Below are positions 9,252-58,523 of a DNA stretch of 64,000 nucleotides, one piece after another. The notes under the pieces were generated by a model. The model had not been told where the DNA came from. It did no database searches and worked only from the letters and a program-made list of their open reading frames with translations. Both the position numbers and the translations under genes were made by a program. Each line of letters starts with the position of its first letter. The first letter of the stretch is position 1. Source of the stretch: Escherichia phage ZCEC14; the sequence record OP168898.1. The stretch is one strand, 5' to 3'.

Positions 9252-9281
9252 GTTTACTTTCCGTTTGAGCTGTGGTATTAT
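9252..9281 (+). promoter_or_regulatory. T4-type early promoter
   Basis: GTTTAC 9252-9257, TGGTATTAT -10, shared leader repeat TACAACTATC. Confidence 0.65.
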
Positions 9282-9309
9282 ACAACTATCGGATAAAGAG
9301 GAGAACATC

Positions 9310-9498
9310 ATGAAAATTGAAGCACTCAATCAAGAAGGAAATATCTACGTCATCATTAATGGTGATTTTTTCGTCGACATGGATGAAGTTACTAGTGAAG
9401 AACTTGTAGAAGTTCTTAAGAAACGCTATAGTATGTGTGATGAAGCTGCAACTCATATGGCGTGTGCAATATTCTCTCTTTCATATGTGGTGGAATAA
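9310..9498 (+). CDS. hypothetical small early protein
   Basis: 62 aa from ATG 9310 with SD AAGAGGAGAA. Confidence 0.5.
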
Positions 9499-9701
9499 TG
9501 ATTAGTATTGAACAAGCAGATAAAATTAAAGAATTGGTAGCTTTAATTCGCAAAGCAGATGAGGAACTTAGTGACTTTGCTTGGTTTTCGGCAGGCATTG
9601 CAAATAAAGGTATTGAAGAATTTGAAGCTAAAGTTGATAATGCTGTAGAAGCTTTAGATATGTTTCTTGATGAAATTATCGATCACAATACGAGAGTTTA
9701 A
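9498..9701 (+). CDS. hypothetical small early protein
   Basis: 67 aa from ATG 9498 (TAATG overlap). Confidence 0.45.
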   Translation: MISIEQADKIKELVALIRKADEELSDFAWFSAGIANKGIEEFEAKVDNAVEALDMFLDEIIDHNTRV

Positions 9702-9703
9702 GT

Positions 9704-9898
9704 ATGCTGACACACGAACAGTTTGAAAAAATCATTAAATTAGCACGTGATGTTGAAATAGATTCATATCAATTAGCAGTTGAGCATTGTGAAGGATATT
9801 CATACGAAGGTATAGCAGCAGCTAAAAGAGATTTGGATAAATCTAAAGCTAAGTTAGTTCAATATCTTGAAATGATTAGGTGGAATAATGAAAACTGA
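9704..9898 (+). CDS. hypothetical small early protein
   Basis: 64 aa. Confidence 0.45.
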   Translation: MLTHEQFEKIIKLARDVEIDSYQLAVEHCEGYSYEGIAAAKRDLDKSKAKLVQYLEMIRWNNEN

Positions 9899-10061
9899 AA
9901 AGCAGATGTTTTTAATGAAGCTAATTGAAGAATATGCTAATGCAGTTTCTGACTATGAGTGTTCTTCTAGGGAAAGAGGCATAGCTTTTGCAAAGGAAGA
10001 AATGAAAATCATGGTTGATGCTCACACAAAACTCCAGAATTTTATTGAAAACGTCATTTAA
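9888..10061 (+). CDS. hypothetical small protein (not in ORF track)
   Basis: 57 aa; ATG 9888 overlaps upstream ORF end. Confidence 0.35.
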   Translation: MKTEKQMFLMKLIEEYANAVSDYECSSRERGIAFAKEEMKIMVDAHTKLQNFIENVI

Positions 10062-10063
10062 TG

Positions 10064-10106
10064 GTTTACAAGTTGGCAAGGTTATGGTATAGTAATCTTG
10101 CCAACT
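10064..10106 (+). promoter_or_regulatory. early promoter embedded in a perfect 10-bp hairpin (PeSL-like element)
   Basis: GTTTAC 10064-10069, -10 TATAGT 10088-10093; arms AGTTGGCAAG 10071-10080 / CTTGCCAACT 10097-10106. Confidence 0.6.
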
Positions 10107-10225
10107 GCCAAGGAGAAGAGAATGAAAGTTTTGTTTGTTGTGTATGTGATGATTCAATATAATTACCCAATGTTTACTTATAATCTGGTGAACAACATTA
10201 TTGATATTATTCAAAGGAGCATGTA

Positions 10226-10411
10226 ATGACAAGTGAGCAGGCTTTTAAATTAAGAGAATTAATTGAGATGTATAGTAAAGCTGTTCATGCATCAACAGTT
10301 ATTGATGAATCAGCTTTCTCCGGACATGCTAATAAGATTAAATACAAAACTCTTATGGAAGAAGCTAAAGTAAATCTTGATTCTTATATTGAAACTTTAA
10401 TTGGTGAATAA
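10226..10411 (+). CDS. hypothetical small early protein
   Basis: 61 aa; SD AAAGGAG. Confidence 0.5.
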   Translation: MTSEQAFKLRELIEMYSKAVHASTVIDESAFSGHANKIKYKTLMEEAKVNLDSYIETLIGE

Positions 10412-10412
10412 C

Positions 10413-11217: not shown

Positions 11218-11739
11218 ATGTTTATTTCAAGTGAAAGTGGTTTAATTCGTGTTGAATTTAAAAATGACATCTTCCTTATTCAAGGAGATGATAATATTAA
11301 AATGAGTTATGACGAAATTAAGAAAATTTGTCATGCTCTTGAAAGTCATGGAAAAGTAAATGCTACTATCGATATAGGCGATTTATGGGTGACACTTTAT
11401 GAAGTATCCGAAGGATTTAACATTGAAGATGAAAACAACATCTTAGCTATTGATAAAAGAAGTGATTTGTTTGATGTGTTAAAAGTTTATGAACAGTCAA
11501 ACGGTGGAAGAAAAGCCGTATTAATTTATCAAAAACCGCATTCATGTGGAACTGCTTCAATCATTTCAAATATTGAAGATGAAACTGATACTTATATGTG
11601 TGTTTTGAAAGCTGGCCGTGACCGTCATCCGGATTTTATTTCTATTCGTCAAAACAATGAAGAAATTTCATTATCAAAATCAGAAGCTGAAGCTATGATT
11701 AAGTATTTAACAACTGTTACACCTTCAATGAAAGGATAA
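11218..11739 (+). CDS. hypothetical protein, paralog of previous ORF
   Basis: 173 aa; shared C-terminal K.EA..L..YL..V.P.M motif. Confidence 0.5.
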   Translation: MFISSESGLIRVEFKNDIFLIQGDDNIKMSYDEIKKICHALESHGKVNATIDIGDLWVTLYEVSEGFNIEDENNILAIDKRSDLFDVLKVYEQSNGGRKAVLIYQKPHSCGTASIISNIEDETDTYMCVLKAGRDRHPDFISIRQNNEEISLSKSEAEAMIKYLTTVTPSMKG

Positions 11740-11741
11740 TT

Positions 11742-12203
11742 ATGATTATTAATGAAAGCTCTTGGCACTATAAATTATTCAAAATGTTTAATGATGAATG
11801 GAAACGGCCTAAGACACTATGCGCGTATTTTTGGTCTATTGTTATTCCTACATTTTTCGTTTCTTTTTTCGGATGTACTATACTCGCAGGTCTAACTATC
11901 ATCTGTGCAGAAATCATACAGAAATGGTTTATTTTTGGTAGTTTATGGACTCTTATTCCATCAGCATTTGTACTTGCCATTTTGCTTGTTTTACTTATTA
12001 TTGGTTCATTTGTTATTCCTGCACAACTGCATGAAAAATATAAAGATTATAAATGGAAAAAGGATTATGCTTTACATGTAGAAAATATTGATAGGGCGTA
12101 TAAAGGTTTACCTCCTATTCAACCCAAGAAATCTATTATCGTCGAATTTTTAAAAGCTCGTAAAGCTAAAGTATGTCCTGTTATTGAATATAAGGCTGAA
12201 TGA
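11742..12203 (+). CDS. hypothetical membrane protein
   Basis: 153 aa; two or three hydrophobic helices. Confidence 0.5.
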   Translation: MIINESSWHYKLFKMFNDEWKRPKTLCAYFWSIVIPTFFVSFFGCTILAGLTIICAEIIQKWFIFGSLWTLIPSAFVLAILLVLLIIGSFVIPAQLHEKYKDYKWKKDYALHVENIDRAYKGLPPIQPKKSIIVEFLKARKAKVCPVIEYKAE

Positions 12204-13214: not shown

Positions 13215-13240
13215 AGGGAGCCTTCGGTCTCCCTTTTTGT
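13215..13240 (+). terminator. intrinsic terminator, TTCG loop
   Basis: AGGGAGCC-TTCG-GTCTCCCT followed by TTTTT. Confidence 0.65.
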
Positions 13241-13261
13241 TTAAAATGACGTCACAAAGTT

Positions 13262-13291
13262 GTTTACAAGCATAAAGCTTTATGGTACTAT
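13262..13291 (+). promoter_or_regulatory. T4-type early promoter with shared leader repeat
   Basis: GTTTAC 13262-13267, -10 TACTAT 13286-13291, leader TACAACTATCAACT. Confidence 0.65.
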
Positions 13292-13326
13292 ACAACTATC
13301 AACTGATGTGGATTTGGGGGAATAAA

Positions 13327-13476
13327 ATGAAAACTACGTTAATTGAAGTAAAAAAGTTGATTGACACAGAAGAGATTTCAGCTTGTTTTGAAAATTTCTT
13401 AGAAGATGCAACTGAAGATAACGCAGTTTATCTCGCTCAGAAAATTATAGAAACATATTTGGAGCAGAATCAATGA
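13327..13476 (+). CDS. hypothetical small protein
   Basis: 49 aa from ATG 13327 (SD GGGGG); track ORF started inside the promoter. Confidence 0.4.
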   Translation: MKTTLIEVKKLIDTEEISACFENFLEDATEDNAVYLAQKIIETYLEQNQ

Positions 13477-13736
13477 CAGTTTACGTAGATGTTTTAATGA
13501 ATCATGGATGGAAACTTCGCGGTCATCCAACTAAAAATTGTCATATGTTCACTGATGGAGATATTGAAGAGCTTCATGAAATGGCAGAAGCAATAGGAAT
13601 GAAACGCTCTTGGTTTCAAGATAAACGCATTAAACATTATGACTTACACGCGCGCCGCCGCCAAAAAGCCGTAGAACTTGGAGCTGTAGAAGTATCTCGT
13701 CGCGAAGCAGTAAAAATTTGGCGAACATTAAAATAA
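13473..13736 (+). CDS. conserved hypothetical protein (MTVYVD...EELH...WFQ...HYDL pattern)
   Basis: 87 aa; locally GC-rich segment; no function assigned. Confidence 0.5.
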   Translation: MTVYVDVLMNHGWKLRGHPTKNCHMFTDGDIEELHEMAEAIGMKRSWFQDKRIKHYDLHARRRQKAVELGAVEVSRREAVKIWRTLK

Positions 13737-13739
13737 ATT

Positions 13740-13769
13740 GTTTACAGTAGGGTAGTAGTGTGATACTAT
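13740..13769 (+). promoter_or_regulatory. T4-type early promoter
   Basis: GTTTAC 13740-13745, -10 TACTAT 13764-13769. Confidence 0.6.
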
Positions 13770-13805
13770 TACCCTATCAAAACAAATGTGAAATTGGAGA
13801 ATAAA

Positions 13806-14774
13806 ATGAAAACTGTAACTATCAATAAGGGTATCTACTTCGGTAAAGAAATCTCTGGAACTTTTGAGCTCTTAGGCGAATGGTTCCCAGATAATGCTCC
13901 GGTAGATGCACAAGGAGATGGTAAAGTTTTTGTTGAAATTGACGGTAAACGTCGCGGTGTTTGGGTTTACAAATCAGATATTTCATATGATGGTGTAAAA
14001 GTTGAAGAAGTTAAAGAATCATATGAAGATATGAAAACCCGCATTAATAAAAGATTTAATGTTATGGGAATGATGACGAATGGTATTATTAATGGAAATA
14101 TTCGTTCATTGATTATCTCTGGCGCAGCAGGTATTGGTAAAACGTATTCTTTAGATAAAGCTTTAAATAAAGCAAATGATAATGGATACATTGAATATAA
14201 AAGCATTAACGGTAAAATCTCTGGTATTGGTCTTTATGAACAGCTTTGGAATAATCGTGAAGAGAATTCTGTCCTTTTGATTGATGATGTGGATGTTTTC
14301 TCTGATATGGACATTCTTAATCTTCTAAAAGCTGCTCTGGACACTGGAGAGACCCGTAAAGTCTGCTGGAGCACTGCATCTTCTTACTTAGAAGAAAAAG
14401 GCATTGACCGTGAGTTTGAATTTAAAGGAACGATTGTTTTTATCACAAACGTTGACATTGACCGCGAATTAGACCGTGGTACTAAACTTGCTCCACATTT
14501 ACAAGCATTAGTGTCCCGCTCAGTTTATTTAGATTTGGGTGTTCACACTAATGAAGAAATTATGGTCAGGGTTGAAGATGTTATTCTTTCAACTGACATG
14601 ATGCAAAAGCGCGGTCTTTCTGATGAAGAAACTTATAAAGCATTATCATGGATGAAAGTTAATGTTAATCGTTTACGCAATGTTTCACTGCGTACTGCTC
14701 TTTATCTTGCTGACTTTATTATGACCGACAAAAACGGTTGGGAAGAAATTGCTGAGGTTACTCTTCTGAAATAA
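13806..14774 (+). CDS. AAA+/P-loop ATPase
   Basis: 322 aa from ATG 13806; Walker A GAAGIGKT, Walker B LLIDDVD. Confidence 0.6.
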   Translation: MKTVTINKGIYFGKEISGTFELLGEWFPDNAPVDAQGDGKVFVEIDGKRRGVWVYKSDISYDGVKVEEVKESYEDMKTRINKRFNVMGMMTNGIINGNIRSLIISGAAGIGKTYSLDKALNKANDNGYIEYKSINGKISGIGLYEQLWNNREENSVLLIDDVDVFSDMDILNLLKAALDTGETRKVCWSTASSYLEEKGIDREFEFKGTIVFITNVDIDRELDRGTKLAPHLQALVSRSVYLDLGVHTNEEIMVRVEDVILSTDMMQKRGLSDEETYKALSWMKVNVNRLRNVSLRTALYLADFIMTDKNGWEEIAEVTLLK

Positions 14775-15180: not shown

Positions 15181-15235
15181 GTTTACAAGACTGTTCCTCT
15201 GTGGTACTATACAACTATCAACTACGGAGGAACAG
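15181..15235 (+). promoter_or_regulatory. early promoter plus leader hairpin (PeSL-like); 9-bp arms include the SD
   Basis: GTTTAC 15181-15186, -10 TACTAT 15205-15210; CTGTTCCTC 15191-15199 pairs with GAGGAACAG 15227-15235. Confidence 0.6.
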
Positions 15236-15238
15236 AAA

Positions 15239-15766
15239 ATGAACGCTAAAGATATTTTCAACTTGGTAAATTACAACGATGGCAAATTTAAATCTGAAGC
15301 GCAAAGCAAGTTCTTTAACGACATCTCAATCGGAGGTGAAATCACTGTTGATGGAGGACAAATTTACAAATCCCGTTGGAATTGGATCGTTATTATTGAT
15401 GAGATCGGTATTGTAGAAATTTACAAGAATACGAATAAAAATCGTACATTACACTGGTCTCGTGATACTAACGAACAGTACAAAAAGGATAAAGCATCTA
15501 AAATGTCTCGTGTAACTCAAGAAGATATTGAGTTCATCAAGAAAGATATTTTAATGTATGATAACTTAATTGCTGAAGAGCAAGCTGTTATTGATAAATT
15601 TGACGAGATTAAAGCTTCTCGTGAAATTCCTGATTTTATGAAAGAATCAGTAAATGAACGATACTCTCTCATTTCAGAGCGTATTGAAACTTACAAAAAG
15701 CAAAGAGCTGAACGCCAAAATACTCTTCGGAAGTTTGAAGAACGGTTAAAGACGGTACTCGCATAA
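15239..15766 (+). CDS. hypothetical protein
   Basis: 175 aa. Confidence 0.5.
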   Translation: MNAKDIFNLVNYNDGKFKSEAQSKFFNDISIGGEITVDGGQIYKSRWNWIVIIDEIGIVEIYKNTNKNRTLHWSRDTNEQYKKDKASKMSRVTQEDIEFIKKDILMYDNLIAEEQAVIDKFDEIKASREIPDFMKESVNERYSLISERIETYKKQRAERQNTLRKFEERLKTVLA

Positions 15767-17135: not shown

Positions 17136-18158
17136 ATGAAAACTCGTTCTCAAATTGAAGATATGGTTCGTAATGCCAGCTATACCCGTGATGTTATGAC
17201 ATTTTTGTGTGAAAATAATTTAGACCCTGATAAAGTTAATCGTGTTATTCATCACTTTAAGTATACGAATAGCAGTGAATGGGTGCGTAATTTTAGTAAA
17301 GCAGGGTATATTACACAAATGACTGCTCGTGAACAGCTCACCGATTTCTGTAAAACTATTGATTATAAAAATCCTTTGATTGTTCAAGGCGTTGGTCAAA
17401 GTAAGGTCGATTTATCATCTGGATTTTTCAATCCAAATCATTATCGTATTGAATGGAGATTTATTGCTCTGTTCCGTAGACAATTAAAGCAAATTTTGTC
17501 TACTGCTAGTCGATTAAAAGGCTCTGATATTAACTTAAAGAATCTGAAATTTGATGGTTATACTCTTCAGATGGAAGTAAGACCGTTAAAAGAAAATAAT
17601 AGAACTGCGCGAATTAGCTTTAAACCTAATACAAAAAATTCTCTTTCAATTTGTGAATGCCTTAAATCGCAGTTGACAGAAGCATTTAAGTATATGGATG
17701 TTGTTGCTGCTGTTCAATCTAAGATTTTACCTCGTTTTGAGCGAAATTGGGAACATACAACAACATATGAACTTGATATGATCGTTTCATTTAAATACGA
17801 TTTTTTGAGAAAGGACGAAGTCACACAAGAGAAAAAGCAGGAAGTGCAAGATAACTTAAATTTATCCAATTACTCATCAAACGATCCTAAATTTTGGATG
17901 TATAGTTCAGGTAATAAAGATGCATGGAAATTCAATAAAGTGAATTTTCTTCCTATTGAAAATCCGAGTCTTAAACCTGTTGAAAAATGGCATGCAGATG
18001 CGATTGAGAAGTCTATCAAGGCAGTAGATGATGAACTCGTTGAAGCAACTAATGAAGTGTTAGAAGCTGAAAAGGTGTTAGAAAAAGCTCAAGAAAAAGT
18101 CAAAAATCTCACGAAGCAACGTTCTAAACTGAACAATGCACTAAATGCACTGAACTAG
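17136..18158 (+). CDS. paralog family member 2
   Basis: 340 aa; RIEWRFIALFRRQLKQILSTASRLKGSD shared with member 3. Confidence 0.55.
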   Translation: MKTRSQIEDMVRNASYTRDVMTFLCENNLDPDKVNRVIHHFKYTNSSEWVRNFSKAGYITQMTAREQLTDFCKTIDYKNPLIVQGVGQSKVDLSSGFFNPNHYRIEWRFIALFRRQLKQILSTASRLKGSDINLKNLKFDGYTLQMEVRPLKENNRTARISFKPNTKNSLSICECLKSQLTEAFKYMDVVAAVQSKILPRFERNWEHTTTYELDMIVSFKYDFLRKDEVTQEKKQEVQDNLNLSNYSSNDPKFWMYSSGNKDAWKFNKVNFLPIENPSLKPVEKWHADAIEKSIKAVDDELVEATNEVLEAEKVLEKAQEKVKNLTKQRSKLNNALNALN

Positions 18159-18187
18159 TTTACTTTACCACAAGGATGTGGTATAAT
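18158..18187 (+). promoter_or_regulatory. T4-type early promoter
   Basis: GTTTAC 18158-18163, -10 TATAAT 18182-18187; same CCACAAGGATGTGG element as at 61849. Confidence 0.65.
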
Positions 18188-18215
18188 GTTCTTACTTTCT
18201 ACTGAGGAGATTAAT

Positions 18216-19217
18216 ATGACTCGTAACGAATATATCAAATCATTTAATAGCGTTATTGATGATAAAGTTAAACCTATGTCTAGTCAGAATAACGTTATTT
18301 CCATTATCAATCAATGGCTCAATAATATTGATGTAAGCATTGTTTCTTCCAGCAAATTTATTCATGAAGTTCATAAAATTTCTAGTCGCGAAGATAAAGG
18401 TGATATTAAGGAAACCTTTAAAGGTTCTCGTCTTCTTTCATATTTAGTTAATCAGGATATTCTTGGTAATTTTGGGAAAGAAATTAAACGAACCAAAGAT
18501 GTAGTAGGATATAATTGGTTTGGTGATGTTAATTCTTATCATCTTAATAATAAAGAAGACCCTGAGAATATTTTTACTCGTCGTTGGATTAGTAATTTCA
18601 GACTTTTCAAAAAGCAAATTCTAAAATCAGCTTCTAAATTATGCTATGGTGATTATCGTCAAATTCATCCTTGGGCTTCTGACATGATTATCATAAAAGA
18701 ATATGAACTTGATAAAAATAAAGCAGCTATTTTTGTGAATTATGGATTTTTTACACCAGAAGCTAATCAAAAGAACATTAATAAATTTTTCTCAATTGCT
18801 AGTGATATAACTCGTCAATTAGAGACTGCATTATTTTGTATGGAAACGGTAGAAAATATTCATACTTATCCTTTTAAGAATATGTGCGGCTGGGAAGGAT
18901 ATAAAATTGTAGTTAGTCTCCGTGAAGTAAAGTGCGCGTACTCACCGACTGATAAAGAAATTTACCAACAAAAATGTGATGAAATTGTGAATACTCCTAA
19001 AGAAGAAACTACCCTTGAGGAACTAATGGAATGTCTTGATGATTCACTTGAACCGGTAGAAATTCGTCCAGAAGTTATTGCACTAGAAAAAGCTTATAAA
19101 GAAGTTCTAGAAATTTCTAATAAAGCACAGAAAGAATATGAGCAGGCTAAAAGGATTTGGGAAGAATCTGTTAATCGCCTGGATCGTCTTGAACAAGCTT
19201 TACAGTTAATTAAGTAA
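18216..19217 (+). CDS. paralog family member 3
   Basis: 333 aa from ATG 18216; TRRWISNFRLFKKQILKSASKLCYGD. Confidence 0.55.
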   Translation: MTRNEYIKSFNSVIDDKVKPMSSQNNVISIINQWLNNIDVSIVSSSKFIHEVHKISSREDKGDIKETFKGSRLLSYLVNQDILGNFGKEIKRTKDVVGYNWFGDVNSYHLNNKEDPENIFTRRWISNFRLFKKQILKSASKLCYGDYRQIHPWASDMIIIKEYELDKNKAAIFVNYGFFTPEANQKNINKFFSIASDITRQLETALFCMETVENIHTYPFKNMCGWEGYKIVVSLREVKCAYSPTDKEIYQQKCDEIVNTPKEETTLEELMECLDDSLEPVEIRPEVIALEKAYKEVLEISNKAQKEYEQAKRIWEESVNRLDRLEQALQLIK

Positions 19218-21004: not shown

Positions 21005-21216
21005 TGCTCGAAGGAACTGATTATATTCATGATTACCGCGGAAGCGCGGTATATGTAGGTGATGAGGTTGCAGTTTACTACGGGTATGGAACTTTGATGA
21101 CAGCCAAGGTTATTCAAATTAAAAATAACCGTGCTAAACTTGAAGTTTATTATTCTAATGGTGAAAAGTCTATTTCTAAATGGAAATATGGCGATTGTAT
21201 GGTCAAACTGGGGTAA
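21001..21216 (+). CDS. hypothetical protein
   Basis: 71 aa; ATGA overlap with nrdC. Confidence 0.45.
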   Translation: MMLEGTDYIHDYRGSAVYVGDEVAVYYGYGTLMTAKVIQIKNNRAKLEVYYSNGEKSISKWKYGDCMVKLG

Positions 21217-21218
21217 AT

Positions 21219-46582: not shown

Positions 46583-46610
46583 ATAAACATAAACTACTGA
46601 GGAGATTATC

Positions 46611-46904: not shown

Positions 46905-46916
46905 TTAGAGGTTGAT

Positions 46917-47273
46917 ATGTATAGTTCTGAATTTTCATATTTAAAAATGGAAAAAATTTCATACGATTTTATAGATGAAAAGGTTTATTACAGTTTCCAT
47001 GAACCACGTTTTAATAGTGAGGTTGGGTTTATTGTAGTAAAAGACAATTTCATTTTAAAAATATATTCGGCATTAAAGGATTTTCACTACGAAAATATTA
47101 ACCTAAAATTTAATAAAGAAAACGTTCGTAATTGCGCAGTAACAATTACAGGAAATAAAGGTACATGTGTTATGCTATCTGATGAAATTAATGATTTGCT
47201 AAATGATGCAGAAAATATTACTGCACCATCTATTGATGACCAAATTTTTAACGCTTTTATGAATAGAGGTTAA
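46917..47273 (+). CDS. hypothetical protein
   Basis: 118 aa. Confidence 0.45.
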   Translation: MYSSEFSYLKMEKISYDFIDEKVYYSFHEPRFNSEVGFIVVKDNFILKIYSALKDFHYENINLKFNKENVRNCAVTITGNKGTCVMLSDEINDLLNDAENITAPSIDDQIFNAFMNRG

Positions 47274-48667: not shown

Positions 48668-48738
48668 ATGTCCTCCTTATTGCTTTATATATTTATTGTA
48701 TAATTAATCTACTAACCCATGAATTGAAAGGAAAAATA

Positions 48739-49257
48739 ATGGCATACTTTAACGAATGTAGTCAACTGATTGAAGGCGCTGATAAAGCTCAAAATGAATA
48801 TTGGGATATTCTTGGTGATGAAAAAGACCCGCTGCAGGTTATGCTTGATATGCAGAAATCTCTACAGGTTCGTTTAGCTAAAGATAAACCTGAATATAAT
48901 CGTCATCCTGATGACTTGGCTACTGCAGGCGAAGTTGTTGATTGGCTGCGCAATCAGAAAGATTATATTGATGATGAATTCCGTGAACTTCTGACTTCTC
49001 TTGGTGGTATGAGCAATGGTGAAAAAGATGCATCTGCTGTATGGAAGCCTTGGAAGTCGCAACATGGTGAACGTCGTGAAACTCTAATTACTGATTTGTC
49101 TCCGCAAGATCAATTGGAAATTAAATTTGAAATGATTGATATTCTCCATTTCGTTCTGAACATGTTCCAAGGTCTTGGTCTTACAGCAGAAGAAATCTTT
49201 AAACTTTATTATCTGAAAAATGCTGAAAACTTTGCTCGTCAAGACCGAGGTTATTAA
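48739..49257 (+). CDS. 56: dCTP/dCDP pyrophosphatase gp56
   Basis: 172 aa from ATG 48739; NEYWDILGDEKDPLQVMLDMQ...FKLYYLKN matches T4 gp56. Confidence 0.85.
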   Translation: MAYFNECSQLIEGADKAQNEYWDILGDEKDPLQVMLDMQKSLQVRLAKDKPEYNRHPDDLATAGEVVDWLRNQKDYIDDEFRELLTSLGGMSNGEKDASAVWKPWKSQHGERRETLITDLSPQDQLEIKFEMIDILHFVLNMFQGLGLTAEEIFKLYYLKNAENFARQDRGY

Positions 49258-49287
49258 CAGCTCGTCTTAAAAGCCGCGAGAATTTAT

Positions 49288-49295
49288 TATAAATA
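49288..49295 (+). promoter_or_regulatory. T4 late promoter TATAAATA upstream of soc
   Basis: exact octamer about 30 nt before soc ATG. Confidence 0.7.
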
Positions 49296-49571: not shown

Positions 49572-49578
49572 TAATTCA

Positions 49579-49604
49579 AGGACTCCTTCGGGAGTCCTTT
49601 TTTC
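49579..49604 (+). terminator. intrinsic terminator, TTCG loop
   Basis: AGGACTCC-TTCG-GGAGTCCT followed by TTTTTT. Confidence 0.8.
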
Positions 49605-49623
49605 ATTTAAACGGTTTACTTTC

Positions 49624-49653
49624 CAAAATGAGTATGGTATAATAGATTTATCT
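49624..49653 (+). promoter_or_regulatory. T4-type early promoter
   Basis: GTTTAC 49624-49629, extended -10 TGGTATAAT ending 49653. Confidence 0.7.
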
Positions 49654-49669
49654 TATAGAGGAGAGCACT

Positions 49670-49882
49670 ATGTTAAATCGCTGGATTAAACCAAATGAAG
49701 ACCTCCAGAAGGTTCTTGATAAAGCTATCTCTGATAAATGGGGTATGAAAAGCTGGGATTGTGATGTCGTCACGCATTCATTCATGATGCATGCAGATGG
49801 TTCAGTCGAGTTCAATGCTGAAATGCGATACACTGACTGGGGTGGATTTCAAAGAGTCGAATTTCAAAGAGGCTTTTTATAA
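49670..49882 (+). CDS. hypothetical protein
   Basis: 70 aa. Confidence 0.45.
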   Translation: MLNRWIKPNEDLQKVLDKAISDKWGMKSWDCDVVTHSFMMHADGSVEFNAEMRYTDWGGFQRVEFQRGFL

Positions 49883-51721: not shown

Positions 51722-51751
51722 GTTTACTTTCCTTCCTAACGATGATATGAT
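51722..51751 (+). promoter_or_regulatory. T4-type early promoter
   Basis: GTTTAC 51722-51727, -10 TATGAT 51746-51751. Confidence 0.6.
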
Positions 51752-51777
51752 AGCTTCTGAAGTATACGGAGGCTATC

Positions 51778-52401
51778 ATGATTATTAATCTTGTAGATGT
51801 TGAACAGTTATCTATAAAAGCTGAAAGTGTTGATTTTCAATATGATATGTATAAAAAGGTCTGTGAAAAATTTACTGACTTTGAACAGTCAATTCTTTGG
51901 CAATGTATGGAAGCCAAAAAGAATGAAGCTCTTCATCAGCAGTTGAATAAAATCATTAAAAAGCATTTAACTAAATCACCTTATCAGCTATATCGTGGTA
52001 TATCAAAATCGACAAAAGAACTCATTAAAGATTTACAAGTCGGAGAAGTGTTTTCAACGAACAGGGTAGATTCATTTACTACTAGTTTGCATACAGCGTG
52101 TTCTTTTTCTTATGCCGAATATTTCACTGACACAATACTTCGCTTAAAAACTGATAAAGCTTTTAATTACTCTGACCATATCAGCGATATTATACTTTCT
52201 TCTCCTAATACTGAGTTTAAGTACACGTATGAAGATACTGATGGATTAGATTCAGAACGTACTGATAACTTAATGATGATTGTACGTGAACAAGAATGGA
52301 TGATTCCAATTGGAAAGTATAGAATAACTTCTATTTCAAAAGAAAAATTACACGATTCATTTGGAACATTTAAAGTTTATGATATTGAGGTAGTTGAATG
52401 A
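51778..52401 (+). CDS. modB: Mod-family ADP-ribosyltransferase (ModB-like by length and order)
   Basis: 207 aa; R-S-E signature: LYRGIS, TTS, EQEWMIP. Confidence 0.65.
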   Translation: MIINLVDVEQLSIKAESVDFQYDMYKKVCEKFTDFEQSILWQCMEAKKNEALHQQLNKIIKKHLTKSPYQLYRGISKSTKELIKDLQVGEVFSTNRVDSFTTSLHTACSFSYAEYFTDTILRLKTDKAFNYSDHISDIILSSPNTEFKYTYEDTDGLDSERTDNLMMIVREQEWMIPIGKYRITSISKEKLHDSFGTFKVYDIEVVE

Positions 52402-53056: not shown

Positions 53057-53086
53057 GTTTACAAACTGAAGTAAAAATGTTATAGT
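53057..53086 (+). promoter_or_regulatory. T4-type early promoter
   Basis: GTTTAC 53057-53062, -10 TATAGT 53081-53086. Confidence 0.6.
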
Positions 53087-53116
53087 ATAAGTAGTTAACC
53101 CGTCCGTGAGAAAAAT

Positions 53117-53863
53117 ATGAAACTGTCTAAAAATCAAATTCGTAAAATTACACGTCGTCTAGAGCATACTCAGGCATCTGCAAAAAGACGTTCTAAAGAT
53201 TTTAACTTAGACTTCAATTACATTAAGAACATTTTAGATCAAAAAGTTTGCGCTTACTCGGGAGAACCTTTTGATAATCGTATTGAAGGAGAGAAATTAT
53301 CATTAGAACGTTTTGATAATAACGTTGGATACATTAAAGGGAACGTTATTGCAGTAAAGAAAAAGTATAATACATTTCGCTCTGATTATACTTTAGAGGA
53401 GTTAATTGAAAAACGTGATTTGTTTGCTTTGCGAATTGGTCGTTCATCTGCGAAAAAAGTTCATAAACTAAATTTAGATGAAAAGAAATGGGCTAAAATC
53501 AAAAAGACTTATAATCAAATTAAAGCTATACAGAAAAAACGTGAAAACCGAATTGAACACATTTCTCAGCTTTCTAAATCAAAACAGACCTCTGACATTA
53601 AGCTAACGATTATAGCGCTTAAAGCTCGTATTGATGGTTCTCGTATAGCAGAAGGCGCTGAAGTTGTTAAACTGAACGTTCTTCTTAAAGGCTCGGATTG
53701 GAAAACCGTGAAAAAGTTGTCAGAAGCAGAAATGCAATATGATATGTGTGATAAAATTATTCAAGGTGTAGAGCGGTATCAAAACTTGTCTTTTATTGAT
53801 AAACTTAAACTGAAAAGAGGATACCCGCTAAATTGCTCAATTTTTAAACTTATCCGAGGATAA
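53117..53863 (+). CDS. Srd-like protein (position of T4 srd)
   Basis: 248 aa, basic; between mod genes and dda; synteny only. Confidence 0.45.
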   Translation: MKLSKNQIRKITRRLEHTQASAKRRSKDFNLDFNYIKNILDQKVCAYSGEPFDNRIEGEKLSLERFDNNVGYIKGNVIAVKKKYNTFRSDYTLEELIEKRDLFALRIGRSSAKKVHKLNLDEKKWAKIKKTYNQIKAIQKKRENRIEHISQLSKSKQTSDIKLTIIALKARIDGSRIAEGAEVVKLNVLLKGSDWKTVKKLSEAEMQYDMCDKIIQGVERYQNLSFIDKLKLKRGYPLNCSIFKLIRG

Positions 53864-55994: not shown

Positions 55995-56677
55995 TGTTTG
56001 ATTTTATTATAGATTTTGAAACAATGGGAAGTGGTGAAAAAGCAGCTGTTATTGATTTGGCTGTAATTGCTTTTGACCCTAATCCAGAAGTCGTTGAAAC
56101 GTTTGATGAATTAGTTTCACGTGGCATTAAAATCAAATTTGATTTAAAAAGCCAAAAAGGACATCGTCTTTTTACTAAAAGCACTATCGAATGGTGGAAA
56201 AATCAATCTCCTGAAGCTCGAAAAAATATTGCACCATCCGATGAAGATGTAAGCACTATTGATGGTATTGCAAAATTTAATGATTACATCAATGCGCATA
56301 ATATCGATCCTTGGAAATCTCAAGGCTGGTGCCGCGGAATGTCGTTTGATTTTCCAATTTTAGTCGATCTCATTCGTGATATTCAACGTCTTAATGGCGT
56401 TTCTGAGAATGAGCTTGACACATTTAAGTTAGAACCGTGTAAATTCTGGAATCAGCGTGATATTCGTACTAGAATTGAAGCACTTCTGCTTGTTCGTGAT
56501 ATGACCACATGTCCTCTTCCAAAGGGAACTTTAGATGGATTCGTTGCGCATGATTCTATTCATGACTGTGCAAAAGACATCCTGATGATGAAGTATGCTT
56601 TGCGATATGCTATGGGTCTTGAAGATGCTCCGTCAGAGGAAGAGTGCGATCCTCTATCTCTTCCAACAAAACGATAA
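55994..56677 (+). CDS. dexA: exonuclease A (DexA, DEDD family)
   Basis: 227 aa from ATG 55994; MFDFIIDFETMGSGE DEDD motif. Confidence 0.85.
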   Translation: MFDFIIDFETMGSGEKAAVIDLAVIAFDPNPEVVETFDELVSRGIKIKFDLKSQKGHRLFTKSTIEWWKNQSPEARKNIAPSDEDVSTIDGIAKFNDYINAHNIDPWKSQGWCRGMSFDFPILVDLIRDIQRLNGVSENELDTFKLEPCKFWNQRDIRTRIEALLLVRDMTTCPLPKGTLDGFVAHDSIHDCAKDILMMKYALRYAMGLEDAPSEEECDPLSLPTKR

Positions 56678-56683
56678 AAAGTT

Positions 56684-56713
56684 GTTTACTTCCTCGGTTA
56701 GTTGTGGTATTAT
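56684..56713 (+). promoter_or_regulatory. T4-type early promoter
   Basis: GTTTAC 56684-56689, extended -10 TGGTATTAT ending 56713. Confidence 0.65.
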
Positions 56714-56740
56714 AACACCATAGCTACTGAGGATAATAAA

Positions 56741-57241
56741 ATGAAAATTTATCGTGTTGAATCATCGTTTAGTATTCTTGATTATGAAGATGCTATAACA
56801 ATACGTCGAAATCTTTGTGTTCAAATAACGCCGTACAGGAGTATAATAGATTCATGGAGCGAAGAGTGGCTATTACACGTAGGTTATGACAGACCTAATT
56901 TTATGCATCATAGCGATAATAATAAAAGAATTCCTTTACCACACGAAGATAAACTATTAGTTAAAAACGCTAATATAGTAATTAATACTAAGTTCAAGAA
57001 AGATTATGTTGGAGTAGAATATCATATTCCAGGATGGTTTATAGCTCTTTATCATTTTGCTTTCGCTAGCGAATATGATATGATGAGATGGTTCACACGA
57101 GAAGAGCGGGAAGAATTATCTTCTAAAGGATTTTATCTCGCTGTATACGAAGTTCCTGAAGATGAAGTTATCATTGGTGGGCACCAAGTAATGTTCCGCA
57201 AATCGCATGCTGAACTCGTAGATTTTATTGAAATGAGATAA
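56741..57241 (+). CDS. hypothetical protein
   Basis: 166 aa from ATG 56741. Confidence 0.5.
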   Translation: MKIYRVESSFSILDYEDAITIRRNLCVQITPYRSIIDSWSEEWLLHVGYDRPNFMHHSDNNKRIPLPHEDKLLVKNANIVINTKFKKDYVGVEYHIPGWFIALYHFAFASEYDMMRWFTREEREELSSKGFYLAVYEVPEDEVIIGGHQVMFRKSHAELVDFIEMR

Positions 57242-57243
57242 TT

Positions 57244-57777
57244 ATGAAATTTAATTATAATCCTGAATACATACCAAATCCGGTAGCTAAACTGATTGAT
57301 TTTGATGTTGTAAGCACTTATGTATGCCCTGTTAAACCACTGGAAATTAAGGAACCTACTATGACTACCGCTATTGAAATCGGCAAAACCTACAAATTGG
57401 TTGAACCTGAAATTAAAACTAATGCCTTGATTTCTGGCCATAAAACTCTGACTGATGTTTTTGGCGAAGGTGAATTTATTGTTGAAGATTTTGAAAAAAG
57501 TAAATGGTTTACTAAATCTTATATTGTCCACGGTCGTCGTTTAGACAATAACAAAATAGAGAAAATCCTGGTTTATGAAGCAGAGTTCATCCTCTTTCAA
57601 GAATGCGATCCTACTGACCTTCTAACTCATGCGGTAGCTATTAAGACCCCATTTATTTCGGTCTGTGGTTGGGTAACAGATCAGTGGATTGAAGATGGTG
57701 TTGAACTTCTGAACGTTGTTCATGCAGGTGATTTTAGCGTAGTACCTCGTAGTGCAGTGGTAGCTATTTTGAATTAA
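57244..57777 (+). CDS. hypothetical protein, paralog of 57854-58351
   Basis: 177 aa; C-terminal TDQWIEDGVELLNVVHAGDF shared. Confidence 0.5.
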   Translation: MKFNYNPEYIPNPVAKLIDFDVVSTYVCPVKPLEIKEPTMTTAIEIGKTYKLVEPEIKTNALISGHKTLTDVFGEGEFIVEDFEKSKWFTKSYIVHGRRLDNNKIEKILVYEAEFILFQECDPTDLLTHAVAIKTPFISVCGWVTDQWIEDGVELLNVVHAGDFSVVPRSAVVAILN

Positions 57778-57779
57778 TA

Positions 57780-57822
57780 GTTTACAAACTCTTGGGACCA
57801 GAGTATAATGGTCCCGTGGAGT
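57780..57822 (+). promoter_or_regulatory. early promoter within hairpin (PeSL-like)
   Basis: GTTTAC 57780-57785, -10 TATAAT 57804-57809; arms GGGACCA / TGGTCCC. Confidence 0.6.
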
Positions 57823-57853
57823 ATAAAATCTTTTTAACAAGTGAGAGATAACT

Positions 57854-58351
57854 ATGATTATTAATATTGGTGAAATTGCTCGTGTATCTGATAAATCCCG
57901 TTCTAAAGCAGCAGGAAAATTGGTTGAAATTGTAAGCATTCAGCTTAAACATGGTGTTAAAGATGAAGATTCTGAAGTAAAAGTGCGTATCATTCCTAAA
58001 GATGGAAAGTCTAAACCTCAGTTTGGTTATGTTCGTGCGAAATTTCTTGAATCTGCGTTTTTGAAAGCTGTTCCTGCTAAAGGAATTGAAACGATTGATA
58101 CTTCACATGTAGGCGTAGACTTTAAGTGGAAACTCGGTCAAGCTATTAAGTTCGTCGCTCCTTATGAATTTGAATTTACCGAAGACGAAGAAGGGGTTGT
58201 TCAAAAACATCGTACTCGCGCTATGTGTGCATACATTACCGATCAATGGGTAGAAGATGGCGTTAAGTTGTACAACGCGGTATTTTTAGGAACATACAAA
58301 GTCATTCCTGAAAGTTGGATTAAACATTATAGCAAAGCTCGCTGTGCATAA
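57854..58351 (+). CDS. hypothetical protein (position and size of T4 motB), paralog of previous
   Basis: 165 aa; C-terminal TDQWVEDGVKLYNAVFLGTY. Confidence 0.5.
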   Translation: MIINIGEIARVSDKSRSKAAGKLVEIVSIQLKHGVKDEDSEVKVRIIPKDGKSKPQFGYVRAKFLESAFLKAVPAKGIETIDTSHVGVDFKWKLGQAIKFVAPYEFEFTEDEEGVVQKHRTRAMCAYITDQWVEDGVKLYNAVFLGTYKVIPESWIKHYSKARCA

Positions 58352-58523
58352 AGTTTAAAATTTTTTCATAAAACTATATACATCAGTAGTTGATTATGGT
58401 ACTATATTAATATCAACTACTGATATAGAAAATAACTTGGAGAATAAAATGGAAAATTTGCCAAAGGTGCTGCTACTCTTCTGAAACGCATCGCTCCAAT
58501 GTTCAATTAATGAGGAAATTGTA

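Follow-up and report, generated by a model that had tools for sequence, protein, structure and literature searches.

Recurring early-promoter cassettes in the T4-like Escherichia phage ZCEC14 carry inverted repeats that may mask the ribosome-binding site in a subset of genes

INTRODUCTION

Several early genes of Escherichia phage ZCEC14 are preceded by closely similar promoter sequences, some of which lie within inverted repeats. Is this likeness greater than a promoter consensus alone would give, and what might the repeats do? We addressed this in a 64-kb stretch of the genome (64,000 nucleotides of OP168898.1), here called the window. An initial annotation had described the elements as dispersed repeats resembling promoter-early stem-loop (PeSL) cassettes; its repeat coordinates are all correct, and the observation was confirmed in the window.

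RESULTS

Early promoters of the window

The window derives from a T4-like Tequatrovirus (99% identity with Tequatrovirus records) and is colinear with the reverse complement of T4 from 67.3 to 0.3 kb. It contains 23 early promoters of the form GTTTAC-N18-TAnnnT, all on the plus strand, where 0.83 would be expected, and the repeats are strong sigma-70-type early promoters of a T4-like phage, set in short cassettes. The consensus of 22 promoters comprises an UP element, the -35, TGn, the -10, and, further downstream, ..TATCAA.TA..; past the -10, the positions a....TATcaa.Ta have an information content of 0.5 to 0.9 bits over all 22. For T4 early promoters, a review by Hinton mentions "additional regions of consensus" (PMC2988021). 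The following members are referred to below.

1268-1328, plus strand: ipIII promoter; 17 of the 22 nt after the -10 match promoter 13740
18158-18218, plus strand: nrdC.4 promoter; internal stem 18166-18183, entirely inside the promoter
25972-26034, plus strand: 55.6 promoter; upstream block TTTTTCACAAA(G/A)(T/C)T common to promoter 40023
46553-46613, plus strand: sp promoter
49614-49672, plus strand: mrh.2 promoter; generic TTTCC anti-Shine-Dalgarno (anti-SD) after the -35
53057-53119, plus strand: srd promoter
61849-61906, plus strand: rIIA.1 promoter; stem 61855-61863/61868-61876 pairs the -35 with the extended -10

The nrdC.4 and rIIA.1 promoters have an identical 18-nt spacer, and a related upstream block (TTTTTCATAAA...) links the 55.6 promoter with promoters 53057 and 58376.

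A near-identical core beyond the consensus

The exact 22-mer TGGTACTATACAACTATCAACT occurs three times in the window, at 13283, 15202, and 40044 (0 expected by chance), with variants at 58397 (3 mismatches) and 9273 (4 mismatches).

13262-13329, plus strand: copy 1; -35 13262-13267, -10 (TACTAT) 13286-13291, core 13283-13304, SD 13315-13320, ATG 13327
15181-15241, plus strand: copy 2, nrdC.8 promoter; -35 15181-15186, -10 15205-15210, core 15202-15223, SD 15225-15230, ATG 15239
40023-40083, plus strand: copy 3, downstream of gene 43; core 40044-40065, ATG 40081
9252-9312, plus strand: degenerate copy, mobD.5 promoter, directly after a terminator; core match 18/22
58376-58451, plus strand: degenerate copy with a weakened -35 (ATATAC); core match 19/22

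Copies 2 and 3 are identical over all 22 nt after the -10 and over 33 nt from the TGG. When alignment columns were shuffled among the 22 promoters, which keeps the consensus, the best match in 2,000 runs was 19/22 (mean, 14.8), so that the 22/22 match exceeds what promoter consensus provides; this comparison had been set beforehand as the one that could refute the observation. Mismatch counts of the copies cluster at 0, the next being at least 3. The "near-identical leader" of the initial annotation thus holds for the exact 22-mer in three copies, but copy 1 has only this core in common with the others and diverges after it. Likewise, the repeat is real, but "leader" describes it poorly: its bulk is the extended -10, -10, and discriminator, and only about 9 nt of the core lie past the inferred start site.

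The proteins encoded downstream of the copies are unrelated to each other. Copy 1 is the ortholog of the T4 nrdC.10 promoter and here drives two small inserted open reading frames (ORFs; 49 and 87 aa), and copy 3 drives orf83 and then imm.1. At 58376, a 13-bp perfect hairpin (58382-58394/58412-58424) surrounds the -10; after it come an SD, an ATG, and an ORF of just 11 codons. This copy, which lies upstream of cef, looks like a relic of a T4 e.8-type cassette.

Cassette borders and gene content

T4 carries the core upstream of e.8, nrdC.10, nrdC.8, and imm.1. Comparison of cassette boundaries across T4-like contigs and T4 placed it before at least nine different, unrelated ORFs, with the flanking spacer and leader modules re-assorted; because the contigs were searched with the exact 22-mer, the core is necessarily invariant among them. 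Parts of cassettes delimit three insertions relative to T4.

13335-13794, plus strand: orf49, orf87, and promoter 13740; flanked by the direct repeat GG(G/A)GAATAAAATGAAAACT, the SD-ATG end of the cassette
40070-40345, plus strand: nrdC.8-type leader and orf83; left junction exactly where the conserved core ends (...TATCAACTAC), right junction at the imm.1 ATG
46216-46546, plus strand: promoter 46238 and orf84; extends between two successive UP/-35 (GTTTAC) elements, the second belonging to the sp promoter at 46553

The orf87 product is a DUF4031 protein according to the annotation of related records. Alignment breakpoints relative to T4 fell inside promoter elements in 8 of 46 cases (1.9 expected; p=6e-4), an enrichment that is partly expected since gene-sized indels must end in intergenic DNA. 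The regB cassette of the comparison sequence L044 is nearly identical to the T4 denV cassette, and whole cassettes, judging from such likeness, also move between genes.

Hairpins around the -10

Inverted repeats span the -10 in about 13 of the 22 promoters. The 64 kb contain 76 perfect stems with 8 bp or more; a promoter -10 lies within 6 of them, against about 0.5 by a rough estimate of chance. Native promoter-plus-leader sequences folded at -17.3 kcal/mol compared with -12.3 for swapped ones (p=5e-5). Translation start regions associated with promoters were more structured than others (-17.9 vs -11.3, p=2.7e-4) and more often had a mostly paired SD (57% vs 18%), in a comparison that recovered the known gene e hairpin as a positive control.

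10064-10124, plus strand: mobD.2 promoter; hairpin 10071-10084/10093-10106 flanks the -10, SD free
13740-13808, plus strand: second promoter before nrdC.10; hairpin 13748-13757/13767-13776 around the -10
45750-45811, plus strand: dmd promoter; hairpin 45762-45770/45779-45787 around the -10
46238-46301, plus strand: promoter of the inserted 84-aa ORF; hairpin 46245-46257/46268-46280 around the -10
57780-57856, plus strand: motB promoter; hairpin core 57794-57800/57809-57815, 7 bp perfect, extension imperfect

Hairpins previously described as perfect are so at 10071-10106, 45762-45787, and 46245-46280 (arms of 9 to 10 bp), but the one at 57794-57815 is imperfect beyond its 7-bp core. In about half of the hairpins (10064, 13740, 45750, 46238, 57780, and 58376), the SD remains free, which rules out masking as the general function of the inverted repeats; a free GGAG follows each of these hairpins.

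Pairing between spacer and SD

In a subset of genes (regB, motB.2, denV, nrdC.8, and orf83), the spacer between -35 and -10 pairs with the SD.

15191-15235, plus strand: copy 2 spacer-to-SD hairpin; arms CTGTTCCTCTGTGGT/ACTACGGAGGAACAG, 9 outer pairs perfect
40034-40076, plus strand: copy 3 spacer-to-SD hairpin; arms TGTTCTTCCATGGT/ACTACGGAGGAACA, with G.U wobbles
4863-4922, plus strand: regB promoter; spacer-SD hairpin 4869-4883/4901-4915 (TTTTCCTCTTGACTG/CAGTTAAGAGGAGAA)
1099-1158, plus strand: duplicated denV-type promoter, driving a 46-codon denV 5' fragment; perfect 10-bp spacer-SD stem 1105-1114/1143-1152
2251-2308, plus strand: denV promoter; two-part hairpin of inner helix 2267-2275/2282-2290 and CTCC/GGAG pairing
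56684-56743, plus strand: motB.2 promoter; hairpin about 56691-56708/56717-56733, SD included
51722-51784, plus strand: modB promoter; -10 region pairs with the start-codon region, perfect over 8 bp (51747-51754/51772-51779)

The 9-bp stem reported for copy 2 is exact (15191-15199/15227-15235). When read-through and promoter-initiated leaders of ten promoters were folded, the predicted unpaired fraction of the SD was 0 to 0.29 in the former and 0.5 to 0.93 in the latter; for copy 2, the unpaired probability was 0.00 and 0.77, respectively. The masking on read-through RNA proposed by the initial annotation is thus supported in these models for ten promoters, and by the covariation described below, but not for the other hairpins, which leave the SD free. 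In a window-wide swap test, SD pairing was not partner specific (native 0.458, swapped 0.463; p=0.56), because many spacers carry a generic TTCC or CTCC anti-SD. A strict scan of RB69 (7 promoters) gave no excess structure (p=0.26); a relaxed scan found 6/11 masked compared with 19/82 (p=0.038), with no difference in minimum free energy, and this replicate is weak.

Covariation across lineages

Partner specificity of SD pairing is visible only across lineages. The regB spacer-SD helix has five different sequences in five lineages, with compensatory changes, and the native arrangement ranks first among 120 permutations. Three different helices occur at motB.2, where JS98-like and RB69 stems differ at the same gene, and two at nrdC.8. 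In an alignment of ten cassettes, 98% of cells are paired, against only 40 to 57% in slid registers; both sides changed in 4 of 10 pairs, and the covariation score was 0.356 compared with 0.139, reached in 0 of 500 shuffles. The changes include a single-base swap (CTCC[T]GTAG/CTAC[A]GGAG vs CTCC[A]GTAG/CTAC[T]GGAG) and a paired A/T indel. Given the L044 regB cassette, part of the covariation at single genes is cassette replacement, not stepwise compensation. Non-Watson-Crick positions inside the helices are G.T in 10 cases, A.C in 1, and other in 0, which favors sense-strand RNA over DNA. To our reading of these alignments, the compensatory changes in the spacer-SD helix would support masking more convincingly than does folding.

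Terminators beside promoters

Canonical intrinsic terminators lie just upstream of five promoters.

9219-9243, plus strand: 9 nt upstream of promoter 9252
13215-13241, plus strand: 21 nt upstream of promoter 13262
25877-25898, plus strand: 74 nt upstream of promoter 25972 (gene 55.6)
39918-39942, plus strand: after gene 43, 81 nt upstream of promoter 40023
49578-49606, plus strand: 8 nt upstream of promoter 49614 (mrh.2)

At promoter 40023, a masking stem coexists with the terminator 81 nt upstream, which we count against masking.

DISCUSSION

We lean toward the view that these are recombining cassettes of the PeSL type whose inverted repeats mask the SD in a subset. Each cassette would consist of an optional upstream terminator, an A/T-rich UP element, the GTTTAC -35, an 18-nt spacer, TGn and the -10, a conserved start region (..CTATCAACTAC..), and then SD-ATG. 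The near-identical subfamily at several loci likely stems from recombination between copies, for which we infer homologous exchange or gene conversion; upstream and downstream modules would re-assort around the common core, and cassette borders would be where ORFs are acquired or lost. In one class, the spacer may pair with the SD region as an anti-SD made up of CTCC or CCTC and gene-specific bases. Promoter geometry places the putative transcription start between the two arms, and RNA from a gene's own promoter would then lack the 5' arm and leave the SD free. Read-through RNA from upstream promoters, in contrast, would fold so that the SD is out of reach for ribosomes, and probably for RegB too.

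Such masking is plausible for the subset of promoters only, and the models suggest that these genes are translated only from their own promoter. If so, regB, motB.2, denV, and nrdC.8 would be translated only during their own early-promoter burst, and modB would be restricted likewise via start-codon masking. By extension, Rho might gain access to untranslated read-through RNA and so insulate the cassettes.

Possibly, though we consider it doubtful, the hairpins govern RNA decay rather than translation. Helices containing the SD would then shield GGAG from RegB on long transcripts, and SD-free helices, once RegB had cut the GGAG that follows them, would be left as protective stem-loops at the 3' end of the message upstream. 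RegB is known to cleave the GGAG of early SDs; secondary structure inhibits the enzyme, and transcripts of the middle and late classes resist it (PMC3014915, PMC1702504). Consistent with this, a free GGAG follows every SD-free hairpin, several leaders, including that of promoter 13740, end in GGAGAATAAAATG, which fits the canonical 11-nt RegB/S1 site (PMC1702504), and the best-conserved helix belongs to regB itself. However, the argument is purely inferential and compatible with translational masking, regB is dispensable in the laboratory, and the modB and motB RNAs, although structured, are cleaved in vivo all the same, perhaps before they fold (Durand et al., PMC1702504). By analogy, cotranscriptional events could likewise defeat masking.

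It is unlikely that the stem-loops act chiefly as transcription terminators or attenuators that insulate cassettes, the function proposed for PeSL stem-loops, and not as translational masks. The RB49/phi1 PeSL stem-loop does lower downstream lacZ like a strong terminator (Arbiol et al., PMC2839356), and the -10-spanning helices are rarer at the five terminator-bearing promoters (1/5 vs 12/17 elsewhere; Fisher test, about 0.07), as expected if terminator and helix are alternatives. Yet no U-tract follows the -10-spanning hairpins, which are thus not canonical intrinsic terminators, and stems of the T4 type have a higher AT content than those assayed in RB49, which were G/C stems. In the covarying class, moreover, the 3' arm is specifically the SD, which termination does not need. 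An indirect route, in which blocked translation leads to Rho polarity, would merge with the masking that we favor.

Translational coupling, in which a ribosome terminating at the upstream stop melts the SD hairpin so that on long transcripts the downstream gene is translated only together with the upstream one, appears improbable. Upstream stop codons do lie just before the -35 (the stop preceding regB is about 10 nt, and that of nrdC.9 about 15 nt, from the 5' arm), but with its usual footprint the terminating ribosome would presumably reach at most the first pairs of the 9- to 15-bp helices.

A role of the inverted repeats as DNA is very improbable. As cruciforms or protein-binding palindromes they might serve recombination, as suggested for a PeSL recombinase target, or promoter opening; they are centered on the -10, the melting region, the cassettes mark indel junctions, and Arbiol et al. 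speculated on a DNA-binding protein that targets the stem-loop (PMC2839356). But duplex or cruciform DNA predicts symmetry, which the excess of G.T over A.C lacks, the arms vary between cassettes and so offer no common protein site, and the junctions of the three insertions fall at the -35, the core end, and the SD-ATG, not at stems. Finally, consensus alone with chance hairpins is scarcely credible: part of the shared sequence is indeed general consensus and the larger part of the 22-mer precedes the inferred start, but the 22/22 and 33/33 identities surpass all 2,000 shuffles, the copies cluster as described, and neither the advantage of native folds nor the covariation fits.

In conclusion, the cassettes of ZCEC14 are of a type already published. 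A PeSL is defined by an AT-rich upstream region followed by early promoter, stem-loop, and SD-ATG, and such elements are concentrated beside variable ORFs (Arbiol 2010, PMC2839356); the concept has been expressly widened to T4/PST, where the promoter reads TTTACW-N17-TAYWAT (Comeau 2014, PMC4122927). All of these parts are present in the ZCEC14 cassettes, and with three insertions bounded by cassettes, the proposed likeness to PeSLs is borne out. The cassette shuffling suggested by our comparative patterns would thus be the published PeSL picture. The masking, in turn, would follow the logic of T4 e, soc, 49, and I-TevI, in which a promoter inside a hairpin goes with sequestration of the SD (PMC3014915), here with early promoters.

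Early promoters and the shared leader

Compared over 3 kb, the window matches Escherichia phage vB_EcoM_P8 at 99% identity and several hundred Tequatrovirus records at 95-99%. Along its entire length, it is colinear with the T4 genome (NC_000866, ~67.3 to 0.3 kb) read in reverse complement, mostly at 90-98% identity, which accounts for the location of all early genes on the + strand. By this alignment, the region studied is the prereplicative region of a T4-like phage.

A generic sigma-70 scan of the window was uninformative (92 sites versus 80 expected), so a T4-specific pattern was needed. The pattern GTTTAC-N18-TAnnnT gave 23 matches, every one on the + strand and most with a TGn motif, where 0.83 were expected. 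We analyzed 22 promoters, each named here by the window position at which its -35 starts; all 22 are followed by a Shine-Dalgarno sequence (SD) and an ATG located 28-47 nt after the -10. The matching T4 genes are denV, ipIII, regB, mobD.5, mobD.2, nrdC.10, nrdC.8, nrdC.4, 55.6, imm.1, dmd, sp, mrh.2, modB, srd, motB.2, motB, and rIIA.1. Aligned, the 22 promoters yield the expected UP/-35/TGn/-10 consensus, with an A/T-rich stretch from -30 to -1 relative to the -35 and an upstream block, AAAAATTTTTTCACAAA, common to several copies of the cassette. The region after the -10 is moderately conserved (a....TATcaa.Ta, 0.5-0.9 bits) across the whole set, and part of the "shared leader" is therefore general consensus.

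Cassette copies in the window (+ strand)
13262: copy 1, ortholog of the T4 nrdC.10 promoter; exact 22-mer core at 13283
15181: copy 2, upstream of nrdC.8; exact core at 15202
40023: copy 3, at orf83 and imm.1; exact core at 40044
58376: degenerate copy; core with 3 mismatches at 58397
9252: degenerate copy; core with 4 mismatches at 9273

The sequences reported in the initial annotation are present where it placed them. The 22-mer core is TGGTACTATACAACTATCAACT, for which no exact occurrence is expected by chance. The three exact copies resemble each other well beyond what the promoter consensus gives. The description of that leader as near-identical holds for 15181 and 40023, which agree at 22/22 positions after the -10 (at most 19 in the 2000 consensus-keeping shuffles), and has to be narrowed for 13262, which shares the core only. 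With a start ~7 nt after the -10, as promoter geometry suggests, only ~9 nt of the 22-mer would be transcribed, most of it being promoter. The proteins encoded downstream of the copies are unrelated; the repeat is therefore regulatory, and gene duplication is ruled out as its source.

Three further observations concern individual promoters. Those of nrdC.4 and rIIA.1, 43.7 kb apart, have an identical 18-nt spacer, TTTACCACAAGGATGTGG (18164-18181 and 61855-61872), which forms a small stem with the -35 paired to the extended -10; they are a second near-identical promoter sub-family. Exact GTTTAC-N18-TATAAT matches at 21442-21471 and 26411-26440 lie in coding sequence with no SD-ATG nearby and may be internal promoters or chance occurrences; the RB69 homolog of the second lies upstream of the RB69 55.4 gene. 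Finally, in the degenerate cassette at 58376-58523, upstream of cef, the -35 is weakened (ATATAC) and a perfect 13-bp hairpin is present; the SD is good, but the ORF that begins at the ATG has only 11 codons. T4 is arranged in the same way, and the leader and first codons (ATGGAnAAT) match the T4 e.8 cassette; the element is a cassette fossil or else encodes a tiny leader peptide.

Cassettes at indel junctions

The exact core is found in T4 upstream of e.8, nrdC.10, nrdC.8, and imm.1, and across T4-like IMG/VR contigs, T4, and the window it precedes at least nine unrelated ORFs, with spacer and leader modules variously combined around it. This search was keyed on the exact core, whose invariance there is by construction, so that only the mosaic flanks are informative. 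A comparison of cassette boundaries with T4 identified three insertions in the window, each bounded by cassette parts.

Insertions in the window relative to T4 (small inserted ORFs, + strand promoters)
Insertion 1: orf49, orf87, and promoter 13740; a copy of GG(G/A)GAATAAAATGAAAACT on each side
Insertion 2: nrdC.8-type leader and orf83; exactly after ...TATCAACTAC, ending at the imm.1 ATG
Insertion 3: promoter 46238 and orf84; from one GTTTAC to the next

Breakpoints of the T4 alignment fall in promoter elements in 8 of 46 cases (1.9 expected, p=6e-4), a comparison made against a lenient null, since gene-sized indels must end in intergenic DNA anyway. The insert orf83 occurs in 30 records, including T2, RB27, and RB51, and apparently lies downstream of gene 43 in all 30 (record coordinates, one match per record). 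Movement between loci was accordingly rejected for this ORF; from these records it is a presence/absence polymorphism rather than a demonstrated transposition.

Other differences from T4 were apparent in the same alignment. Several T4 segments have no counterpart in the window, namely the nrdD intron with I-TevII, mobC, mobB, dam, segF, and the mobA/60.1/gene 60 insertion including the translational bypass region. Going by alignment coordinates, ZCEC14 appears to be devoid of most T4 homing-endonuclease genes and of dam, with an unsplit topoisomerase gene 39. Four other T4 segments are replaced in the window by unrelated sequence of different length; the 49.2/49.3 exchange has been mentioned for phage PST too (PMC4122927).

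Other alignment features (window coordinates)
23181-23184, 24460-24480, 29259-29284, 48678-48699, 49257-49288, 61449-61514: junctions of the missing T4 segments (nrdD intron to gene 60 insertion)
41860-42807, 21005-21388, 11236-12199, 46905-47229: replaced T4 segments (beta-gt plus segA, 49.2/49.3, mobD, 61.2)
1087-1296: second denV-type promoter, leader, and first 46 denV codons, 74% identical to the T4 denV start
2306-2722: intact denV

The denV-start duplicate is situated between an internal-protein-like ORF (about 815-1096) and ipIII, ends inside the ipIII promoter, and looks like a recombination scar in the internal-protein locus.

Hairpins spanning the -10

The four promoter hairpins that had been annotated as perfect all exist; three have perfect 9-10 bp arms, while the one at 57794-57815 has only a 7-bp perfect core. 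The 64 kb contain 76 perfect stems that are 8 bp or longer and have 4-32 nt loops; 6 of them enclose a promoter -10, where a rough estimate predicts ~0.5. When each promoter region was folded with its own leader or with the leaders of the other 21, the native combinations were more stable (-17.3 versus -12.3 kcal/mol swapped, p=5e-5). A helix spans the -10 in ~13 of the 22 promoters.

Predicted helices, by promoter (+ strand)
1099, 4863, 15181, 40023, 56684: 3' arm is the SD region
2251, 51722: more complex versions of the SD-region pairing
10064, 13740, 45750, 46238, 57780, 58376: arms flank the -10, SD free
18158, 61849: stem wholly inside the promoter

The 5' arm resides in the -35/-10 spacer and should by geometry lie upstream of +1, so that it would be part of read-through RNA from an upstream promoter and absent from the short RNA initiated at the cassette's own promoter. 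In folds of 10 promoters, the SD is predicted to be unpaired with a probability of 0-0.29 in read-through RNA versus 0.5-0.93 in promoter-initiated RNA. Promoter-bearing translation starts are predicted to be more structured than the other 67 starts in the window (-17.9 versus -11.3 kcal/mol, p=2.7e-4), and their SD is mostly paired in 57% of cases versus 18% of the others. The same fold test recovered the known gene e hairpin (ATG at 330, SD unpaired 0.00), which served as a positive control. Masking of the SD on read-through transcripts, as proposed in the initial annotation, is thus supported by predicted folding at these 10 promoters, but would apply to a subset only, the window-wide swap test of SD pairing giving no partner specificity (native 0.458, swapped 0.463, p=0.56). 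Swapped pairing equals native pairing because many spacers begin with a generic TTCC/CTCC after the -35, which complements any GGAG. Tuning of individual spacers to their own SDs inside a single genome was therefore rejected; specificity is seen only across lineages.

None of the -10-spanning hairpins is followed by a T-run, and hence they are not intrinsic terminators by the usual definition. Non-Watson-Crick positions in the window helices (10 G.T, one A.C, no others) favor a sense-strand RNA over a DNA cruciform. Canonical terminators were identified 8-81 nt upstream of five promoters. A -10-spanning helix is found at one of these five terminator-preceded promoters versus 12 of the 17 elsewhere, a difference that is suggestive only. 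A scan of the whole window with Rfam 15 covariance models gave no match at gathering score. No perfect stem in the window is longer than the 13-bp inverted repeat at 2375-2414 (TTGCCACGTGTTT ... AAACACGTGGCAA), whose arms are within the denV coding region, on either side of an extended -10-like motif, TGGTATAAT.

Covariation of the spacer-SD helix across lineages

We compared promoter regions of orthologous genes from other T4-like lineages. A single metagenome scan provided only 10 regB loci and added two new lineages. The MAFFT alignment of regB (A2) was out of structural register, and an offset-based pair table was used instead. For regB, five lineages have five different helices.

Spacer-SD helices at regB (5' arm/3' arm)
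Lineage 1: CCTCTTGACTG/CAGTTAAGAGG
Lineage 2: CTCCTCTAGTTG/CAACTAGAGGAG
Lineage 3: CTCCTGTAAG/CTTACAGGAG
Lineage 4: CCTCTCTG/CAGAGAGG
Lineage 5: CTCCTGTAG/CTACAGGAG

The native spacer-leader duplexes range from -18.5 to -23.2 kcal/mol (swapped mean, -12.8), the native arrangement is the best among all 120 permutations, and eight helix positions carry different standard pairs between lineages. A second alignment, of ten equal-geometry cassettes from five genes, is paired in 98% of its cells, with 4 of 10 pairs changed on both sides; its covariation score is 0.356 versus 0.139 after shuffling (reached in 0/500 shuffles), and pairing drops to 40-57% in slid registers. Three different helices are found at motB.2 in the T4-type, JS98-like, and RB69 lineages. 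At nrdC.8 there are two helices that would mask the SD, and one lineage has a hairpin over the -10 alone. In otherwise near-identical cassettes, CTCC[T]GTAG/CTAC[A]GGAG is exchanged for CTCC[A]GTAG/CTAC[T]GGAG by a single-base swap, and a paired A/T insertion also occurs; both argue for stepwise compensation.

Replacement of entire cassettes also contributes. The regB cassette of a distant phage (metagenome contig L044, OERM01001636.1, ~220-300) is nearly that of T4 denV (T4 65393 region), GTTTACatCTCCTGTAGg.atgaTACTATa.acctatcaaCTACAGGAG, and whole promoter-hairpin cassettes are thus common to different genes in different phages. With cassettes moving between genes, some of the differences at single genes are replacements, not compensations.

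Replication across the RB69 genome was weak. A strict scan of RB69 retrieved only 7 promoters, with no excess structure; support from a relaxed scan was weak (Fisher p=0.038), the MFE showing no difference. Variant -35 boxes or 17-nt spacers are frequent in RB69 promoters and cause the scan to pass over motB.2 and ORF040, among other cases that are evident by eye; clear helices do occur singly, at motB.2, ORF040, ORF041, and modB. Masking thus would seem to be a property of particular genes or cassettes, not of all early promoters.

Proposed isoform-specific translation from early promoters

On the predicted folds and the covariation, we judge functional SD masking at a subset of early promoters somewhat more probable than its absence. 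A wider proposal is more doubtful and is put forward tentatively: the early-promoter spacer might act as a transcript-isoform switch in T4-type phages, such that the genes are translated only from their own promoter and read-through RNA is left to Rho. Some of the long-known "extra consensus" (C-rich bases behind the -35, CTAC ahead of the SD) would on this view serve as a signal in the RNA and not as a polymerase contact, and the covarying anti-SD/SD helix would form on any read-through transcript initiated upstream. For a cassette gene, both translation and exposure to RegB would depend on initiation at its own promoter. Rho would act on the untranslated read-through RNA, and the cassette would in this way gain, with no U-tract, the insulation proposed for PeSL stem-loops. 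The module would provide self-contained, portable "own promoter only" expression and could help to explain how dozens of small, possibly toxic early genes are shuffled safely.

The hairpins may, instead or in addition, protect from RegB or stabilize upstream messages. Early SDs are cut by RegB at GGAG, and RNA structure inhibits the enzyme (PMC1702504); the RegB/S1 target is a GGAG/U with an A-rich 7-mer, canonically AAUAAAA, behind it in RNA free of structure (Durand et al. 2006, PMC1702504). Leaders ending in GGAGAATAAAATG (13740 and 58376; T4 e.8 and nrdC.10) match the canonical 11-nt S1-dependent site at the sequence level, and the T4 imm.1 leader carries a variant, GGAGAATGAAATG. The match would account for some of the leader's 3'-end conservation. 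The promoter-side arm is not explained by it, and the 15181/40023 leader (GGAGGAACAG/C) differs from the canonical A-rich site, with GGAGGAACA at the RegB-site position in both.

The cassettes themselves are not news, being textbook T4 early promoters within the published PeSL concept. What the analysis adds is the covarying spacer-SD helix at a subset of early promoters, which turns isoform-specific translation into a concrete, testable hypothesis. If it acts as predicted, the pairing would give a reason why some early proteins appear only in the first minutes despite continued upstream transcription, and would connect cassette insulation with RegB sensitivity and Rho polarity in a way open to experiment. 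The conserved covarying pairing of promoter spacer and ribosome-binding site at genes such as regB, motB.2, denV, and nrdC.8 may be of use; it would also amount to a simple design rule for portable phage expression modules. The literature searched, in which older T4 work is poorly covered, gave no account of hairpins that sequester the SD at early promoters of T4; spacer-SD pairing at individual genes may already have been noted in that older work.

Comparison with known systems

The window promoters have the UP/-35(GTTTAC)/TGn/-10 organization of T4 early promoters and lie upstream of counterparts of T4 early genes such as regB, motB, modB, dmd, and denV (PMC2988021). "Additional regions of consensus" in T4 early promoters (Liebig & Ruger 1989) are regarded as possible RNA polymerase contacts in the review of Hinton (2010, PMC2988021); in contrast, part of this consensus, namely the C-rich stretch behind the -35 together with the CTAC that precedes the SD, appears to behave as RNA helix arms here.

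For T4 genes e, soc, 49, and I-TevI, the SD is sequestered on long transcripts, with the promoter in the hairpin (Uzan & Miller 2010, PMC3014915, section 29). These are the sole cases given in that review; their promoters are late (TATAAATA), and translation is delayed to late infection (PMC3014915). Likewise, the window elements have a promoter in or beside the 5' arm, and the long RNA is predicted to hide the SD/AUG while promoter-proximal RNA is translated. Unlike in the gene e type, the proximal promoters are not late (TATAAATA) but early sigma-70-type, and the predicted timing is reversed, with translation confined to the immediate-early burst. We therefore regard the window elements as putative analogs of the gene e type, not members of the late-promoter set. 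If the pairing works as predicted, gene e/soc/49/I-TevI control would be extended from late to early promoters.

At the level of the cassette, the elements match promoter-early stem-loops (PeSLs) of T4-like phages (PMC2839356; PMC4122927), to which the initial annotation had likened them. The promoter, AT-rich region, stem-loop, SD-ATG, and association with variable ORFs and indels were all found, and by sequence the cassettes fit the PeSL definition of Arbiol et al. (2010, PMC2839356). This supports the PeSL interpretation, which is already published and at that level ordinary for a T4-like phage. The PeSL concept also includes promoter and terminator activity shown by experiment and mini-circles formed between adjacent cassettes. 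Like PeSLs, the composite cassettes (AT-rich region, strong early promoter, stem-loop, SD-ATG) are repeated many times in early, hyperplastic regions, adjoin small variable ORFs, and mark indel junctions between close relatives. Comeau, Arbiol & Krisch (2014, PMC4122927) explicitly describe PeSLs in T4 and PST, where the promoter takes the form TTTACW-N17-TAYWAT; the window promoters match it. A stem-loop lies beside or over the promoter here as five upstream terminators and ~13/22 -10-spanning helices. The former correspond to T4/PST stem-loops, described just upstream of the promoter (PMC4122927), and the latter to RB49/phi1, where some stem-loops overlap the -10 (PMC2839356). In contrast to the PST/T4 description, the window has -10-spanning hairpins and covarying spacer-SD pairing; the stems in the PeSL papers were given a terminator role, not one in SD masking (PMC2839356; PMC4122927). 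Finally, the cassettes resemble morons and linkers (Hendrix 2000; Botstein 1980, as discussed in PMC2839356), in which a single ORF with its own promoter and terminator lies between conserved genes, but differ in that the flanking regulatory sequence is itself the junction homology and the inserts are co-oriented with their neighbors.
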